Part shown: positions 1,352-10,984 of the stretch, one piece after another
Numbering within the stretch: the stretch's first letter is position 1
How the letters are laid out: each line of letters begins with the position of its first letter
Source of the DNA: Armatimonadota bacterium
Lineage (GTDB): Bacteria > Armatimonadota > Fimbriimonadia > Fimbriimonadales > GBS-DC
Length of the DNA: 10,984 nucleotides
Reading direction: 5' to 3'
Assembly: GCA_037445735.1 (NCBI GenBank)
Contig: JBBIJY010000044.1
Location: 1-10,984 of the forward strand
Notes under the pieces: model-generated
Told to the model about the DNA's origin: nothing
What the model saw: the letters and a program-made list of their open reading frames with translations, nothing else
Database searches by the model: none
Translations under genes and position numbers: made by a program

Positions 1352-2581
1352 TTACCACCGTTTTACACCCGATATGAGAAACTCCACCAGCTCTTTCTTG
1401 GAGTTGCGTTTACGCAACGGTTCGACTCGAATATGGTTTATTCCTGTCTCCTGCATCAGGCGTGCCAGTAGCTGTTCCGTCGGCACAATAACTTCGTAGA
1501 ACTTGGCGTTTCCCGCCACATAGTATATTTGCGCCCCTGCGTGCAGAAGATGACTCAGACTGTGGAGGTGTGTTCGCATGTCCTGAAAATAGCGCAGGAC
1601 ATAGCGTGAAAGCAGATGACTCCGCTTGTCGATAGCCTGTACCAGTTCGCGCAGTTCGGGCAGGGTAGCATAGAGGGATGGATCGTTGAGTTCGAGGCTT
1701 GTCAGGCGGCTGGTGGCAATGCCCCATGTGCCGCCGATGGCTTGCCAGTCCAGCTCACCTGCTTCGCGGGCATCTTTCAGGAAGCCCAGCCAGTAAAGGA
1801 AAGGGCGCACCTCACGGACATAGCTCATCCGATTTGGATAGGGCGGTGAGGTGATGACAATATCGTACAAACGCCCTGGCAGGCAATCCAGCGTGCGTGC
1901 ATCTCCAGCGAAGACTTCCGCTTCGCCGTTTAGCGCTTCCTGCGCAGAGCGCGCGATCCTGCGGGCAGTGTCCAGAAAATCATTCAGTATCAGACCTGAG
2001 TCTTCCTGCAAAAATAAGCTGGGTTCCGCCGCTTTGAAAGTCACTGAGGGGTGATGGTAGCCCGCGTTTGACCATCGTATCAGTGTTTGGCAGAAAGCAA
2101 TCAGGAGAAGATCGGCAACTTGCGGAGGTTCAGCCTCACAAAGGCAGCGGATGGCGGTATACAGGTGAGCCAGTGTGTAAAGGCGTTGAGGTGTCCACCA
2201 GCGATCAATGCGATGCATAGGCGGTATCCATTCGGGGGGTTGAGAGAAGTTGCGCTTGCTCTGAAGGACAGCCTGATAAGCCAGATTGATAGTGCGCTCG
2301 ACGCAGGTCGTCGGGTACTGCTGCACTTTCGCTCGCGCCAGCCACACAAGGAATGGATTAATCTCCACCATATCGCACTGGAAGCCCCGTTCAGCGCAGA
2401 CAAGCCCTGTTGTACCTGTGCCAGCAAAGGGGTCTAACACTCTGCTATGAACAGACGCCTGTTGAAGCAGTTGTTCCACAAGGGTAGCCGCATAGGCGGG
2501 CGTTAGTCGGAGCCAGCCATGCCGCCCATTGCGCAGGTTCGCCTTAAAAGTTAGCTCACTCCGCCGTGTTAACTTCTGCAT
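1352..2581 (-). CDS. DNA amino-methyltransferase, probably N4-cytosine-specific, alpha motif order (409 aa from MQKLTRR)
   Basis: SAM-binding motif I VLDPFAGTGTT near the N-terminus and catalytic motif IV ITSPPY far downstream (SPPY is typical of m4C MTases). Start placed at ATG 2579-2581, overlapping the end of the upstream gene by 26 bp; the longer ORF-track start lies inside the endonuclease gene. Confidence 0.88.
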   Translation of the reverse strand: MQKLTRRSELTFKANLRNGRHGWLRLTPAYAATLVEQLLQQASVHSRVLDPFAGTGTTGLVCAERGFQCDMVEINPFLVWLARAKVQQYPTTCVERTINLAYQAVLQSKRNFSQPPEWIPPMHRIDRWWTPQRLYTLAHLYTAIRCLCEAEPPQVADLLLIAFCQTLIRWSNAGYHHPSVTFKAAEPSLFLQEDSGLILNDFLDTARRIARSAQEALNGEAEVFAGDARTLDCLPGRLYDIVITSPPYPNRMSYVREVRPFLYWLGFLKDAREAGELDWQAIGGTWGIATSRLTSLELNDPSLYATLPELRELVQAIDKRSHLLSRYVLRYFQDMRTHLHSLSHLLHAGAQIYYVAGNAKFYEVIVPTEQLLARLMQETGINHIRVEPLRKRNSKKELVEFLISGVKRW

Positions 2582-3374
2582 CGCCCAACAACACTCCCAG
2601 AATACCCTGCACAGTTTCTCGCAACGCCGAGCTATTTCGCTCGAAAAAGCCTGCCAGATCAAATCCGATGACCGAGTGGCAGAACGCATAGGTGGAACGA
2701 GTGGGATCGTTTCCCCTACTGCCCCGCAAGAGGAGCCATTTTGCACCCATGTATCGCTGAGCCACCACCTCGTCAATCTGTTCGGATAGCACGAGCATCA
2801 CTGGCATATAGCCTGCTGCATAGGCGCGGACTGCGCTTTGAATGTCAGCGTTCTGCCGCTTCGAATCGCGACTCTTGTAGCCCTGTCGCACCTCGAAAAC
2901 GACTCCTTGCAGGCGCCCCGGATCGACATCCTGCAGCCGCTGAGCGGCATCGTGCATCCATGCAGAAAATCGCTCGCGAGCATCGGGGGACCTGATGGCG
3001 TCCCGCTGAACCCTTGCATCCAGCTCCAGAAAGGCGATCCTGCCCGCCTCCCGCTGCACCTGATAGCGCCATTCGATCTGCTTTTTACTGAGTCCCAGAT
3101 GGTCAATCACTATTTGTTGAAAGAGTCTCTGGCAGCCAATCCCCAGCTGGCGGTACAGCGAAGTGATACCGCCACCTGCACGATGTGTTTTATAGACCAG
3201 CGTTGTATCCAGACCAATCCAGTGATAGAAAGGGTCAGCTGCATACTGCTGGAGAAATCGCTCGAGGGAGACAGGTTCCTGTCCACCCAATCGAGGCTGG
3301 TATCCCCGACAAACCTCGAGGGCGTCCAGTAAGATGCGAAGATAGCGCTCCTCTCGTTCGCTCGTCGTTCTCAT
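2556..3374 (-). CDS. Putative Type II restriction endonuclease (PD-(D/E)xK-like), 272 aa
   Basis: Directly upstream of and overlapping the MTase, with typical REase size and a candidate catalytic pattern LELDAR...VVFEVRQGYKSRDSKRQNAD. Its ATG (3372-3374) overlaps the gltX TGA (ATGA). Assignment rests on context plus a motif-like pattern. Confidence 0.7.
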   Translation of the reverse strand: MRTTSEREERYLRILLDALEVCRGYQPRLGGQEPVSLERFLQQYAADPFYHWIGLDTTLVYKTHRAGGGITSLYRQLGIGCQRLFQQIVIDHLGLSKKQIEWRYQVQREAGRIAFLELDARVQRDAIRSPDARERFSAWMHDAAQRLQDVDPGRLQGVVFEVRQGYKSRDSKRQNADIQSAVRAYAAGYMPVMLVLSEQIDEVVAQRYMGAKWLLLRGSRGNDPTRSTYAFCHSVIGFDLAGFFERNSSALRETVQGILGVLLGDAEVNTAE

Positions 3375-4870: not shown

Positions 4871-4932
4871 TGCTGCACCTCTGGGAGCCGCCTTCCCTCC
4901 GGAAGGATGGTTCAAGGGCGAGGGCAACTCCT

Positions 4933-5100
4933 GAGGGTGTTCGGAAATTCGGGGCATAGTATCGACCTGAGTGAAGCCCCCTCACCCGTACCCTCTCCCC
5001 CGCCTGCGGGGGAGAGGGGCTAATGACTCCCTCCCCCCGCTGGGGAGAGGGTCGGGGTAAGGGGCAGCCTTTCCTCTGGTTGGATTTTTCGAACACCCTC
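4933..5100. mobile_element. MITE-like non-autonomous element, 168 bp
   Basis: Terminal inverted repeats GAGGGTGTTCGGAAATTC (4933-4950) and GATTTTTCGAACACCCTC (5083-5100), 16/18 match. Immediately flanked by GCAACTCCT (4924-4932) and GCAACCCCT (5101-5109), an 8/9 direct repeat. No transposase. Confidence 0.7.
4978..5064. repeat. GC-rich palindromic intergenic repeat (RIME/CIR-like architecture) inside the MITE
   Basis: Outer arms CCCCTCACCCGTACCCTCTCCCC (4978-5000) and GGGGAGAGGGTCGGGGTAAGGGG (5042-5064) match 20/23 as an inverted repeat. Perfect 13-bp hairpin at 4991-5003/5006-5018 and a second imperfect hairpin at about 5027-5051. Confidence 0.85.
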
Positions 5101-5108
5101 GCAACCCC

Positions 5109-5138
5109 TTGACATTCCTGTCTTGAACAGGGTATCCT
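5109..5138 (+). promoter_or_regulatory. Housekeeping-type promoter for the sigma-factor gene
   Basis: TTGACA (5109-5114), 18-nt spacer, TATCCT (5133-5138, preceded by GG), then SD GGAGG (5152-5156) and ATG 5163. Confidence 0.65.
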
Positions 5139-5162
5139 GCTTTTATCCAGCGGAGGTCAGCG

Positions 5163-5797
5163 ATGCCCGCAAAGAAGCGAGCAAAGGAGCAAGCGGTGCA
5201 TCCAGCAAAATCTCAACCACCATCGCAACTTCGCGGGGGGGGGGTGAACCTGAGTTGGCTGAACTCAATCCCGCTCTGCGCAAAGCCATTCGCCGCGCTG
5301 TTCGGCGCTTCCGACCCACATGCCCACCACCGAACTGGAGCCAGTCCGAATGGCAGGACGAACTCCTGCACGAAGCCGTTCTATGTGCCTTGCAAGCCGA
5401 ACAGGAGTTTGAACCTGAGCGGGGTGTGTGTCTGGAAAAGTTCGCCTATGATCGCATCTGCGCTCATCTGAAGACTTTCACCAACCGCGAGTGGGGTTAT
5501 CAGAAGGCGGTAGTCGCATTTGAAGAAGATGAGGAAACAGGCGAAGTGTGGGAGCCTGTAGATGAGCGGAGTATGGAGGCTTATGAACAGTTAGAGGCTC
5601 GGGTGTTAGTGGAGTGGTTGCGGGGTCAGCTGGAGGAGTGGGAATACCAGTTATGGGTGTGGGTAGCAAAGAAGCGTTCGTATCGGTGGATTGGAAAGCA
5701 GTTAGGAGTCTCGCATGAGGTAGTGCATCGGCGATGGAAACGGTTGCAGGCGAAGCTGCGGGCACTGTTGGAGAATCGGGGTCAAAAAGAGAGATAG
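5163..5797 (+). CDS. Small sigma-70-family (ECF-sized) RNA polymerase sigma factor, frameshifted at a G10 tract as sequenced
   Basis: Region-2-like segment ELLHEAVLCALQAEQEFEPERGVCLEKFAYDRI and region-4 HTH SYRWIGKQLGVSHEVVHRRWKRLQAKLR are in the 5123..5797 frame. The SD-supported ATG 5163 is in another frame and joins it only with G11 or G8 (211 or 210 aa). Alternative in-frame start: TTG 5255. Confidence 0.8.
5235..5244 (+). repeat. G10 homopolymer tract (candidate slipped-strand or frameshift site)
   Basis: CTTCGC-GGGGGGGGGG-TGAACCT; the longest homopolymer seen in the window. Confidence 0.9.
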
Positions 5798-5850
5798 AGG
5801 TGTTGACAAAGAGCAATCGCGGGGCAACTCCATTTAATGGAGGTGCGAGA

Positions 5851-6327
5851 ATGAAAACAAAGGATCTTTTGATGAGGAACGGTGTTGCGAACCAGCGCAA
5901 CGCGGTACGGTTGTTGGGGATACTGGTGTTGTTGATGTTATATCTTCATGCCCTCGGTCAGCAGGAAGAGCCAAGGGAGCTTCCGGATCACAAGTGCGTA
6001 CTTCGCCCGGCAGGTTACTTGTGGCAGCAGAACAGTTGCTTGCAATCGATTGAACCTAACCCAGCTCCTACGGAAGCATATACCCTGTTTGGTTGCTCTG
6101 GTGGATGCCTCAGAGGTAAAACAGATCAAGACATTTATATATGTGAATTTAATCGTGGCACGAGCTGCCTTATGCGTCAGATGGGGTCCTTTGAGATCAG
6201 AGTAACAGAAATTGCCGATTGTGAACCAGCTGGTTCGGGATGCGATTGCATTGATTGGAGACCTGCAGATCCATCCACACCACCACGACTTATTTTTTAT
6301 CCCGATTGTTCAGCACCACCGCAATAG
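5851..6327 (+). CDS. Secreted cysteine-rich hypothetical protein (158 aa, 10 Cys in the mature region)
   Basis: SD GGAGG 5839-5843 and ATG 5851. Basic N-region, hydrophobic stretch LLGILVLLMLYLHALG, likely cleavage ALG|QQ, and 10 Cys including CSGGC and GCDC. Confidence 0.75.
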   Translation: MKTKDLLMRNGVANQRNAVRLLGILVLLMLYLHALGQQEEPRELPDHKCVLRPAGYLWQQNSCLQSIEPNPAPTEAYTLFGCSGGCLRGKTDQDIYICEFNRGTSCLMRQMGSFEIRVTEIADCEPAGSGCDCIDWRPADPSTPPRLIFYPDCSAPPQ

Positions 6328-6359: not shown

Positions 6360-7550
6360 ATGATTCGAAAATGGCATGCCTGGTGGGCACTTGTTTCCAT
6401 GTTCACAGTGGCGGGGCTTACAATACGGTTCTCGATCGCTGCTTGTAGTGAGACTTCTAAGAGCGAGTTGGCTGATTGGAGTGCAAAGCGTCAACAAGTT
6501 GCTCGTAGTCACACTTTTATCTGGAATGTGGCGGGTATGCTGCATATTCCTAAGGAGGCTGTTTGGGGGAATATGATAAGTACTTTACTAATTGCTCAAA
6601 AAATATTAGAACAAAAAATTTCGTCAGCTTCTGAACAAGTTAATTGGTGGAAATATAATATTTCAATGATTAATCCACCGCAAATGGATTTATTTGCTTC
6701 TGGAATATCAGAAAACTATATTATTACCAATAGTCCGCACATTGTTCACATTGCCGCATATAGGGAAAGACTGGCTTCTTATGAGGCTACTGACAAAATT
6801 GCGGAGACCTTCGAAGTTTACTTTCAAAACGAGCTCGTTGTTCATTTGCGTAATCAGGGTTCGGTAGTCGCGGATATTGCGCTCCATCCTGCAGGTACTG
6901 TCAGCATGGGTGATCCTTTCGAAACCTTTATAGGACCGGCATTTTTAGTTTTTCTGGCGGGTGTTCCTCCTCTCTGTATGTTTGCTGGCAGCGAGAAAGA
7001 CTGGCAGTTAGTCGCCACGACTCCTGATGAATGGGTTTATGAGCGCAAAACCCCTGATAATTGGGAGTTAGAACTTCATGTAAGTCGAATCCACAAAGGG
7101 GCCCCAAAGAGCCTTCTGATGCGTCGTACTGGTGCCCAGTTCTATTGGAATGTGCTGCAATTCACTCAAATTGATGGACAATGGTTTCCATTAGAAATAG
7201 AAATGATATATGAATATTATGACTTAACAACCCCTGCGACTCGTGAGGATATTGAGAAGATTTTAGAAAACTATATCGTGAAAGATGATAATGGAAGAGA
7301 GCAGGCGATCGTTTCTCTACCCTTACATCGTTGCAGCAGACCCTCTATGAGTAGGCGTCGCTACATGTTGGTTAGTGCCAAGCCAGCGAGCACCGCCTGT
7401 TTCACGCTGCCTCAGGGTACCTTCGTGCGTGATTGGCGATTAAGCGGTGGTAACCTCTGGCACAAGGGAAATGGAATAGTGGTCGAATACACATGGGAAG
7501 GTTTTCTACCAGACCTAGAAACACTGAATCAGAAGGCGCATGCCAAATAG
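6360..7550 (+). CDS. Exported or membrane-anchored hypothetical protein (396 aa)
   Basis: Long open frame in AT-richer DNA with SD GGAGG 6346-6350. N-terminal signal-like segment MIRKWHAWWALVSMFTVAGLTI followed by lipobox-like IAAC; the body looks rich in beta-strands. No family recognised. Confidence 0.75.
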   Translation: MIRKWHAWWALVSMFTVAGLTIRFSIAACSETSKSELADWSAKRQQVARSHTFIWNVAGMLHIPKEAVWGNMISTLLIAQKILEQKISSASEQVNWWKYNISMINPPQMDLFASGISENYIITNSPHIVHIAAYRERLASYEATDKIAETFEVYFQNELVVHLRNQGSVVADIALHPAGTVSMGDPFETFIGPAFLVFLAGVPPLCMFAGSEKDWQLVATTPDEWVYERKTPDNWELELHVSRIHKGAPKSLLMRRTGAQFYWNVLQFTQIDGQWFPLEIEMIYEYYDLTTPATREDIEKILENYIVKDDNGREQAIVSLPLHRCSRPSMSRRRYMLVSAKPASTACFTLPQGTFVRDWRLSGGNLWHKGNGIVVEYTWEGFLPDLETLNQKAHAK

Positions 7551-7557
7551 AGTGGAT

Positions 7558-8793
7558 TCAACGGTGTTGAGCTTCACGAGGATTCACCTCCTCTAACTGA
7601 TGCAGAGCCGACTCGTACTGTTCTATCAGGTGGTGGACGACTTCGCGCACGGGCTGGGGGTTCGCGCCAGCGGCGCTGGGGGTGATAATCTGGCGGATGG
7701 CATTCAGCGGGTGTTTACGGCGCCTGGCAACCGATAGCAGCCAGTCGCATGCCTGGTCGGGCGGCAGGTGCGTGTCGTAGCCGTTGATCTGCAGGAAGGT
7801 CAGCACGCCAATCAGCGCAGTGCCCGGATTGCCGCGCGCGAAGGGGCGATAGGTCAGATAGCCCCACAGGAACCGCGCCGCCTGCAACGGTACATCCATG
7901 CTCTGGCGATAGCTGTATTGATAGCAGGTCGCCTCCTCTAAGCGGTCGTAGTTGTATGGCTGGGGCGCGCCTGTGATTTCGGTGTTAATCCAGATGAGGT
8001 CCTGCACGGTGAGGTATCGCCAGCGCGAGGCGGGACCGGGCACGGGCTGCGGGCTGACAGGCATCATGGCGGGCAGGGTGTCGCGCTGTGCGAGCTGCTG
8101 CCTTTCCCGAAGCGCTCGCTCCGCCCGCACCAGCGAATCGCGATAATCGGCAATCATCTGCTCAATCAGGTCGGCATAGGTGAGGCGAGTCGTGCTCTCG
8201 TCGGGCTGAAGGGACAACGATGCCCATTCACCTGATAGCAACCGTTCGGCTGCCTCATCAGGCGAGAGCGTGGCGCGGAAGCCGTTCGCGCCCAGAAACG
8301 CCAGCGCTGCAATCGATGCGGTGGTGGCGTTGTATTCGCGAAACGGCTGCAGGGTGTTGAGCGCATCAAAAAGCGCGGCGGCTCGCTGAAGTGCGTCCGC
8401 ATCAGGCGGGGTCAGCATCGTTAGTAGTCGCGCACGGTTCAGGCGGTCGGCGTCGCACTCGGGCGGCGCGAGGCAGATGCGCTCGTTGATCAGCTGGAGG
8501 TCGCTCGCGGTGGGATAGCGCCAGCGGTCGCGCTGAACCGCCGCGCGCCGAATCGCCCTGCCGTGCGCTTCAAGCTGCTCCAGCAGAATGGGCAGAGTCT
8601 CATGGTTCAGCGGTCGCGCCGCTTGAAAGGCATCTAACAGGCTCTCCTGCAGCGGTTCGTCCAGTGCGTCCAGCCCTGTGTTCACCGCCTGCAGCCAGCG
8701 GGCAAGTTCCAGCCAGGCGGGTGAGCCATCCGTCAATATCTTCTCCCGCAGGCTATCGGTCAACTCCATGAGTGTATCGCGTAGTGCGTCCAT
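7558..8793 (-). CDS. Protein with two degenerate Fic/Doc (Fido) domains (411 aa from MDALRDTL)
   Basis: Two similar modules: WRYPTASDLQLINERI...AAALFDALNTLQPFREYNATTASIAALAFLGANG and WRYLTVQDLIWINTEI...AARFLWGYLTYRPFARGNPGTALIGVLTFLQINGY, resembling the Doc core HPFxDGNKRTA...FL..NG. The start could instead be the Met 8 codons downstream. Confidence 0.8.
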   Translation of the reverse strand: MDALRDTLMELTDSLREKILTDGSPAWLELARWLQAVNTGLDALDEPLQESLLDAFQAARPLNHETLPILLEQLEAHGRAIRRAAVQRDRWRYPTASDLQLINERICLAPPECDADRLNRARLLTMLTPPDADALQRAAALFDALNTLQPFREYNATTASIAALAFLGANGFRATLSPDEAAERLLSGEWASLSLQPDESTTRLTYADLIEQMIADYRDSLVRAERALRERQQLAQRDTLPAMMPVSPQPVPGPASRWRYLTVQDLIWINTEITGAPQPYNYDRLEEATCYQYSYRQSMDVPLQAARFLWGYLTYRPFARGNPGTALIGVLTFLQINGYDTHLPPDQACDWLLSVARRRKHPLNAIRQIITPSAAGANPQPVREVVHHLIEQYESALHQLEEVNPREAQHR

Positions 8794-8806
8794 CGTGCCG
8801 TTGAGA

Positions 8807-8814
8807 ATTGTACC
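8807..8814 (-). promoter_or_regulatory. Putative -10 element (GGTACAAT) for the Fic-domain gene
   Basis: Minus strand reads GGTACAAT, 13 nt, ATG(8793), with no SD. Confidence 0.45.
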
Positions 8815-8874
8815 TGCCTGCTGACAGGAAGAGGCGCACGGGCGGTGAACTATCCGCATCGGAGGGATGTACCG

Positions 8875-10813: not shown

Positions 10814-10914
10814 CCTTCATGAAGGTGCAGGAGAAGCCGCCCGCCAGGTTTAATCCCAACCAGCAGGAATCGCGCTGAACAAGGCGAATCGATATGCTAT
10901 AGCAGGAGGCAACG

Positions 10915-10984
10915 ATGCCTGCCCGGTGTGAGGCTCGGATTGTTGATAAGCGGGCAGAGCGCTCACGCGATAGCGCTCTCGTCC
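10915..10984 (+). CDS. Start of an unidentified ORF (MPARCEARIVDKRAERSRDSALV...), truncated by the window edge
   Basis: Strong SD AGGAGG (10904-10909) 5 nt before ATG 10915; frame open to the end; too short to assign. Confidence 0.45.
   Translation, partial: MPARCEARIVDKRAERSRDSALV

Follow-up and report, generated by a model that had tools for sequence, protein, structure and literature searches.

A candidate three-state poly-G switch at the junction between a leader reading frame and a sigma factor gene in an Armatimonadota lineage

Homopolymeric poly-G and poly-C tracts form contingency loci in Campylobacter, Neisseria, Haemophilus and Helicobacter, examples being the poly-G run in the signal peptide of pilC and the 'phasome' of C. 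jejuni with flgR and flgS, and textbooks associate homopolymer phase variation with host-adapted pathogens, where it mostly affects surface structures. Three-level phase variation is found in lic1 of H. influenzae, which carries CAAT repeats with two in-frame ATGs upstream of the repeat. Two further kinds of system are close to the locus described here, namely translational coupling by termination-reinitiation at overlapping stop and start codons (ATGA, GTGA), and the programmed frameshifting or slippage of dnaX, prfB and IS elements. Homopolymer loci have been surveyed in general terms (Orsi et al. 2010, PMC2831843), phasevarions, which are phase-variable global regulators that rely on mod methyltransferases, have been reviewed (PMC5149525), and the flagellar inversion switch governing SigD of C. 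difficile is among the systems named in PMC12360218. Here we analyse a stretch of 10,984 nucleotides (nt) from an Armatimonadota bacterium (GenBank assembly GCA_037445735.1, contig JBBIJY010000044.1), hereafter the window, which is the entire contig C44 of a 2.78-Mb draft assembly in 59 contigs (62% G+C, ~16x word depth) and in which a run of ten guanines (G10) separates a short leader open reading frame (ORF) from a sigma factor gene. We favour, with moderate confidence, the reading that this run is a slipped-strand translational switch with three states, in which the leader is fused to the sigma factor, coupled to it by re-initiation, or read through it out of frame.

According to this reading, the G10 run would be hypermutable, its length being altered by slipped-strand mispairing during replication, and it would stand where a short leader ORF with efficient initiation (ATG 5163) meets a sigma gene with a start of its own (TTG 5255), such that tract length modulo 3 would set the frame in which leader ribosomes arrive at the sigma start. 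With G8 or G11 the two would be fused in frame into a sigma factor of 211 amino acids (aa) with an N-terminal extension, with G9 or G12 leader translation would stop at TGA 5245 or 5251 and re-initiation at TTG 5255 would yield a 180-aa sigma factor, and with G10 or G13 the leader would pass the sigma start out of frame and run on for 214 nt, with sigma synthesis most likely reduced or off. The assembled G10 most likely leaves sigma synthesis low or off, since TTG 5255 initiates weakly and would have only the G run, 10 nt away, as its ribosome-binding site. The G9 allele found in a sister species would be a third state, probably a productive one, which the preliminary description had not considered. 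The sigma factor would then be switched on stochastically and heritably in a fraction of cells. We infer the mutational mechanism, the switching within populations and which of the states are productive.

Upon examining the locus, we found TTGACA-18-TATCCT, the Shine-Dalgarno (SD) sequence GGAGG, ATG 5163 and G10 at 5235-5244 all in place, as a preliminary description of this DNA had reported (Table 1). The sigma-70-like site is the single one in positions 4950-5900, with 10 of 12 consensus matches (shuffle mean 0.3), and a TTGAY...TAYNNT arrangement is present in 8 of the 11 loci of the window's orthologue group. The SD and ATG of the leader are kept among orthologues and paralogues alike, and the leader peptides of the orthologues open with M-x-A-K-K/R. 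As assembled, the leader ORF is composed of 24 codons of leader proper, GGG GGG GGG, and the first 214 nt of the sigma gene out of frame. The ATG 5163 frame translates as MPAKKRAKEQAVHPAKSQPPSQLRGGGVNLSW... (longer excerpt, MPAKKRAKEQAVHPAKSQPPSQLRGGG) and has no domain from there to its stop at 5471, and the sigma factor is encoded in the -1 frame relative to it (ORF 5123..5797); ORF reading and the TIGR02937 match thus bear out what had been described. Arithmetic likewise upholds the earlier statement that one extra G, or G8, restores a 211-aa frame, as the addition of one G or the loss of two merges the leader and sigma frames. TTG 5123, which had been called an unlikely start, is rejected here, as it lies inside the promoter spacer and the extension that it would give is unsupported by any homologue. 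TTG 5255 is the earliest start-type codon of the sigma frame past the tract, and the first stop in the G9/G12 leader frame is at -10 relative to it.

The G10 run occupies the position at which tract-less paralogues have a GGAGG-type SD. Matches to G8 in the window number three, overlapping and all at 5235-5244 (shuffle mean 0.30, with 2 of 200 shuffles reaching three). G10 is also present in a separate assembly of a DNA run (X1, record 8), with 0 differences and 0 gaps over 5073-6300, although that assembly possibly derives from the same reads. Predicted folding of the leader (5146-5290) is no better than that of shuffles (z 0.27), and for the segment from the tract to +66 the mean z across 34 loci is -0.07 vs mononucleotide shuffles. 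In most of the predicted folds, C-rich (Pro) codons further downstream pair with the G run and the start is enclosed; we discarded this pairing as evidence because it is indistinguishable from a composition effect. At a permissive threshold over 4900-5900, Rfam gave no match to the leader and 8 weak matches below gathering, all of them in a repeat at 4971-5073.

The gene past the tract encodes a sigma factor of the sigma-70/ECF (extracytoplasmic function) type. TIGR02937 (sigma-70/ECF) matches with 46.5 bits (cut-off 42.9) over residues 52-214 of ORF 5123..5797 and profile positions 10-163 of 165, with the match beginning at nt 5276. The Pfam families for region 2 (PF04542, 15.8 bits vs a cut-off of 24) and region 4 (PF04545, 13.9 vs 24.1) both remain below gathering, which indicates that this sigma factor is divergent. 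The AlphaFold model is all-helical, with a predicted local distance difference test score of 87.7, and shows the two-domain helical sigma2/sigma4 fold. The listed Foldseek matches in the PDB are mostly sigma factors at probability ~1 (6jcx_F sigma H, 8hkc_E sigma 32, 6dv9_F sigma L), with only 2 matches at E<=0.001; the template modelling score is ~0.3, so that the domain arrangement differs from that of PDB sigma factors. In orthologues, the codon equivalent to TTG 5255 is ATG.

We next consider the wider sigma family, for which 47 loci have a hidden Markov model match from profile position <=8; 4 are cut by contig ends and 43 are usable. Orthologues were drawn from two related genomes, 13 metagenome loci (11 with the start region) and the protein database; a search of the genome contigs with an orthologue-alignment profile gave no relative, and a scan of metagenomes gave the 13 loci. 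Conservation of a variable-length G tract in homologues had been proposed as a check, and we find an uninterrupted G7-G12 directly upstream of the sigma start in 33 of the 43 usable loci, spread over four genera, with the start codon 0-10 nt past the tract in all 33. This conservation makes an assembly accident unlikely. The layout recurs in a constant order, in which a promoter motif is followed by a strong SD and ATG, then by a leader ORF of ~20-35 codons, next by poly-G with a C before it, and lastly by an ATG, GTG or TTG in the sigma frame. Of 28 other genomes in the window's family, 17 encode a member of the sigma family (E<=1e-25), as against none of 52 genomes from four sister families; the sigma family is lineage-specific, being found only in one Fimbriimonadales-like family.

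When the 33 tract-bearing loci are partitioned by frame, the leader is fused to the sigma gene in 13, coupled to it in 7 (leader stop within 20 nt of the sigma start) and reads through out of frame in 11, with the leader undetected in 2; L051, whose leader is undetected by these criteria, is in frame by a separate reading. Frame offsets of both +1 and -1 are seen between leader and sigma. The window as assembled is in the read-through state, its leader stop lying 214 nt inside the sigma gene, and with G9 or G12 the stop would abut the start as it does in L010. In the window's orthologue group, one frame has a stop just before the sigma start (TGA 5245 and 5251 here, -4 in L010 and L043), and in L010 (G9) the leader terminates at the second TGA, at -4; in other orthologues the near-start stop lies 5 nt past the start (ATGGCTAA or ATGGCTGA). 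Among database orthologues, 3 have an in-frame leader-GGG(G)-x-Met-sigma arrangement (P0005, P0007, P0010) and 5 start at the post-tract Met.

Of the 32 loci that fall outside the window's orthologue group, 26 have NTGA at the sigma start, as do 20 of the 22 among them that bear a tract; as background, A stands at +4 in 41% of 485 SD-ATG starts of the window's genome. NTGA places a +1-frame TGA over the sigma start codon, and the second and third bases of the following codon vary. The leader ends exactly on this TGA in L020, L027 and L028, where the run is interrupted or absent, and at C17:23302 of the window's own genome (G11-A-G5). Such an overlap of stop and start is a signature of translational coupling. 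L022 represents an in-frame version with neither a tract nor a separate leader.

For the window's own locus, assembled Logan contigs of 4 DNA runs from one study were consulted, and these cross the tract without a break. G9 is found in the orthologues L010, L047, L048 and L053, G10 in the window, L041, L044, L046 and L049, G11 in L011, L042, L045 and L051, and G12 in L043. Length thus differs between close relatives with near-identical flanks, and with it the reading frame. For instance, L042 (G11) and L044 (G10) share 98.05% identity over 2056 nt with 2 gap openings overall, and L047 (G9) and L049 (G10+AG) share 99.25% over 2143 nt. Furthermore, a sister-strain contig from run X2 has one G fewer at 5235 and shares single-nucleotide polymorphisms (SNPs) of the same-genus orthologue L010 (G9). 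Similar differences occur elsewhere in the genome, as a locus encoding a GerE regulator has G9 in the window's genome vs GGTGGGGGGG in the sister genome G002 (99% identity, 701 nt), and the L134 leader copy reads GGGGGGA in the window's genome vs G8 in the sister. Within lineages, independent metagenome assemblies agree (three G11, three G9, two G10), which argues against random assembly error.

Across the window's genome, G/C runs become about ten times rarer with each additional base up to length 8 (3400, 440, 39 and 5 runs), and 15 runs of 9-17 are present where fewer than one is expected from the decay of the shorter runs. Homopolymers of at least ~8 nt at the 5' coding region and a genome-wide excess, as in contingency loci, are therefore both found here; A/T homopolymers also exceed the trend at length 9 (15 runs vs 9 runs of length 8). 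A common module is shared by 12 of the 15 long runs, consisting of an extended -10 element such as GGGGTATAAT, an SD, an ATG, a leader of 16-33 codons, a C and the G run. Eight of these 12 tracts precede ORFs of secreted or surface type, with a signal-peptide-like segment right past the run. Among the eight, the genes on C18, C20, C27 and C28 have Pfam matches to Big_1, PKD or a galactose-oxidase-like E-set with Kelch and dockerin, the C57 protein is 57% identical to the C28 protein, and the remainder have no Pfam family. As assembled, C3:121494 alone is in frame. Five of the eight (C20, C27, C28, C30 and C57) have no in-frame ATG, GTG or TTG within ~45 nt past the tract, the sole nearby start in C30 being a TTG 6 nt before it, so that tract length must decide the expression of these five genes. 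Among the remaining tracts, the one on C13 stands before a GerE/LuxR regulator whose own ATG is 4 nt past the run, others precede further sigma paralogues, and the run on C59 lies between the 3' end of a sigma gene and a DUF1573 gene. Runs of G9 or longer occur in 41 of 41 sampled genomes of the order (counted as overlapping matches, not tracts). In the window's genome, the G8/C8 runs at C9:95816 and C36:4017 are situated within long open frames. It is possible, if still tentative, that the whole sigma family, with several paralogues per genome, is under three-state homopolymer control, giving stochastic and heritable combinations of regulons beside a poly-G 'phasome' of secreted proteins; if true, a non-pathogen would be hedging its bets combinatorially through its supply of transcription factors.

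The earlier proposal of an ON/OFF poly-G switch holds in part, in that the tract is conserved and variable, relatives carry in-frame fusions and similar tracts occur genome-wide, but the layout, with its conserved post-tract start, looks like one of three states and not a plain ON/OFF alternation. A number of points weigh against such a switch. With the G run perhaps acting as its SD, the conserved post-tract start could permit sigma synthesis in every state, in which case 'OFF' would perhaps be only a reduction. No structural basis for a dependence on coupling emerges, since the predicted pairing of the G run is matched in stability by shuffled sequences. The state counts (13, 7 and 11) are near uniform, as for a tract without an effect on expression, and as the loci are non-independent paralogues and orthologues, the NTGA and start-codon counts overstate significance. 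Additionally, heterogeneity of length within a population is what defines phase variation, whereas the lengths read here are those of one assembled allele per contig, and as they come from short-read metagenome assemblies each may be off by one. The same near uniformity is what neutrality predicts under an alternative that we regard as unlikely, in which the G run chiefly serves ribosome binding, as an SD mimic that pairs with the CCUCC anti-SD, and coupling, while its length drifts because homopolymers slip and the sigma factor is made from TTG 5255 at similar levels in all states, with mild tuning at most. The position of the run within 10 nt upstream of a start codon at every one of the 33 loci and the GGAGG-type SD at the equivalent place in tract-less paralogues (e.g. 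L020, L027, L028, L013) fit this explanation. However, an SD requires 4-6 nt and an unselected G8-G12 should decay by interruption, yet the run is kept in 33 of 43 loci and in four genera; the NTGA conserved in 26 of 32 loci implies that the position of the leader stop matters; the same tracts lie within the N-terminal coding region of secreted-protein genes, 5 of 8 of which lack an in-frame start past the tract; and the run in the window ends 10 nt ahead of a weak TTG start.

Recoding was the other mechanism raised in the preliminary description, whereby RNA polymerase slippage on G10 or ribosomal -1 frameshifting would yield some fusion protein, with the junction peptide ...LRGGGGEPELAELNPALR, from the out-of-frame allele. 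Long homopolymers are known slippage sites, and the window shares its -1 relation between leader and sigma with the G017-type orthologues (L011, L042, L045). In contrast, 13 of the 33 tract-bearing loci are already in frame and 7 have the other offset, the closest orthologue L010 (G9) would need +1 and not -1, no downstream stimulatory structure exceeds that of shuffles, and the leader is without an Rfam match. Fixed recoding is unsupported, given that leader and sigma frames stand in differing relations across homologues (fused in 13, coupled in 7, read-through in 11), and we consider this explanation decidedly improbable. Still less credible, to the point of being very nearly dismissed, is an assembly or sequencing error, under which the true allele would be G11 or G9, the gene intact or coupled, and the frame break an artefact. 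Homopolymers of at least 10 nt are error-prone, and in this 59-contig draft with its ~16x word depth several contigs end at or near such leaders and tracts. On the other hand, a second assembler also gave G10, the sister lineage has G9 together with its own SNPs, independent metagenome assemblies agree within lineages, and a length off by one would leave the architecture and the variation among relatives standing. The three-state switch thus remains the reading that we prefer.

Table 1. Coordinates of the features of the window
Feature	Position	Strand	Details
Putative sigma-70-like promoter	5109..5138	+	TTGACA 5109-5114, 18-nt spacer, TATCCT 5133-5138; preceded by GGG
Shine-Dalgarno and leader start	5152..5165	+	GGAGG 5152-5156, 6-nt spacer, ATG 5163-5165
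Leader ORF as assembled	5163..5471	+	102 codons; stop codon 5469-5471
Poly-G tract G10	5235..5244	+	C before the run; within the leader ORF; 10 nt upstream of the sigma start
TGA pair	5245-5247, 5251-5253	+	In the leader frame if G9 or G12; leader end 7 nt or 1 nt before TTG 5255
Sigma-70/ECF-type sigma factor gene	5255..5797	+	180 aa from TTG 5255; stop TAG 5795-5797
Downstream ORF	5851-6327	+	158 aa, Cys-rich, N-terminal hydrophobic segment; no Pfam family
Downstream ORF	6360-7550	+	396 aa; no Pfam family
Fic/DOC-domain protein	7558-8859	-	433 aa
Protein with weak DNA-methyltransferase matches	1352-2776	-	474 aa

Several further observations concern the sequences around the leaders and tracts. 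A C precedes the G run in every family locus that was read. Immediately 5' of the run, GGCRATYTNGCAC is conserved as DNA in L014, L016, L023, L138, L140-L145, L148 and L150, and the leader ORFs read it in differing frames (GNLAR-GGG vs AILH-GGG); its conservation despite these frame differences points to a constraint at the level of nucleic acid rather than peptide. The motif CAGGAAT[CTA]-N12-18-[CT]GAA[TC]C has 33 sites in the window's own genome (e.g. C44:10864, C17:23150, C3:120813, C59:1123), mostly just 5' of SD-ATG starts and often ahead of sigma-like genes, and it is found before 18 of 32 paralogue leaders but at none of the 11 loci in the window's orthologue group. By its sequence, the motif resembles an ECF-type promoter and is possibly autoregulatory. 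A second leader of the same kind lies at 10862-10984 (+) of the window, incomplete at the 3' end of the contig, with a CAGCAGGAATC...GGCGAATCG promoter-like motif, AGGAGG and ATG 10916; it resembles the leaders of L134 and L137, in which G8 and the sigma start lie another ~25 nt downstream. The assembly has more contigs that stop at or close to a leader or tract of this kind (G17 at C17:3-19, and the ends of C1 and C48). At C17:23323-23571, a sigma paralogue behind G11-A-G5 breaks off after ~82 codons, an unrelated signal-peptide gene comes next, and a stretch near-identical to this paralogue (...YQPDRGVSLEGFAVRCAVRAI...) runs on at the end of contig C26 (C26:35472-35854); either the C17 paralogue is broken or the contig was wrongly joined at a repeat. 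Split sigma copies are also seen in several relatives.

As regards the surroundings of the sigma gene, the two ORFs downstream of it may be co-transcribed with it or be among its targets. The 158-aa ORF has no usable Atlas match, and for the 396-aa ORF the nearest named Atlas clusters are TP_0789-like, LolA-like and MucB_RseB at 0.88-0.89, values below 0.9 that serve as leads only. An adjacent anti-sigma factor was sought in these two ORFs and rejected, as neither has a Pfam family and the Atlas yields leads only, in agreement with the earlier remark that none is recognisable nearby. The downstream genes and gltX accompany the sigma gene only in the same-genus orthologue L010, 1 of the 15 orthologue loci searched, and so do not provide a conserved partner. 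The Fic/DOC-domain protein and the protein with weak DNA-methyltransferase matches (Table 1) flank the region, and the rest of the contig encodes gltX, an ornithine or aspartate carbamoyltransferase, a short-chain dehydrogenase/reductase and a pyridoxal phosphate enzyme. Just 5' of the sigma promoter, positions 4971-5115 hold a dispersed, partly palindromic G/C-rich repeat of ~100 nt that encodes ...PLTRTLSPRLRGRG-like strings and has 58 matches across the genome, with C28:20246-20346 being 100% identical over 101 nt. This repeat explains a spike in depth, many contig joints and the weak, miRNA-like Rfam matches.

Word searches of open-access texts found neither a poly-G-switched sigma factor nor phase variation in Armatimonadota, Armatimonadetes or Fimbriimonadales. 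The class of mechanism, that of homopolymer contingency loci, is well known, and what looks new is the sigma family as target, the three-state design of leader, poly-G and stop-start, and the lineage. The same device appears here in a whole family of uncultured environmental bacteria, and probably throughout an order, where it is attached both to sigma factors and to secreted proteins. Should tract length set sigma output, each switch would toggle a regulon and not a single gene, and the arrangement of leader ORF, poly-G and NTGA would be a compact natural three-state translational switch. There is also a consequence for annotation, as gene callers give these sigma genes inconsistent starts and contig breaks in this assembly fall at or close to leaders of this kind.

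The locus resembles the contingency loci of pathogens in its 8-12 nt G/C runs at gene 5' ends, in their genome-wide excess, in frames that are in or out depending on the relative, and in targets that are mostly surface or secreted proteins with some regulators. Unlike those loci, it belongs to what appears to be an environmental, uncultured lineage of Armatimonadota (Fimbriimonadales-like) and not a host-adapted pathogen, its target is a sigma family, and its tract lies at the junction of a leader ORF and a gene with an internal start and an overlapping stop; switching is here a proposal. As in lic1, repeat number modulo 3 would pick the frame relation and give graded levels instead of on and off, whereas the tetranucleotide and two ATGs of lic1 are replaced by fusion, stop-start re-initiation and out-of-frame read-through. 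The NTGA at the sigma start of 26 of 32 paralogue loci, and the leaders of L020, L027, L028 and C17 that end on its TGA, resemble textbook coupling, but a hypermutable run in the last codons of the upstream ORF would make coupling depend on tract length. With dnaX, prfB and IS elements the locus shares a homopolymer between two overlapping frames that jointly encode one protein, although their frame relation is fixed and the one described here varies among homologues. Finally, as with phasevarions and the C. difficile switch, stochastic switching of a regulator would shift a whole regulon; phasevarions have their repeats in methyltransferase genes and the C. difficile switch uses DNA inversion and Rho-dependent termination, whereas here a homopolymer would act on the translation of sigma factors, with several paralogues per genome.

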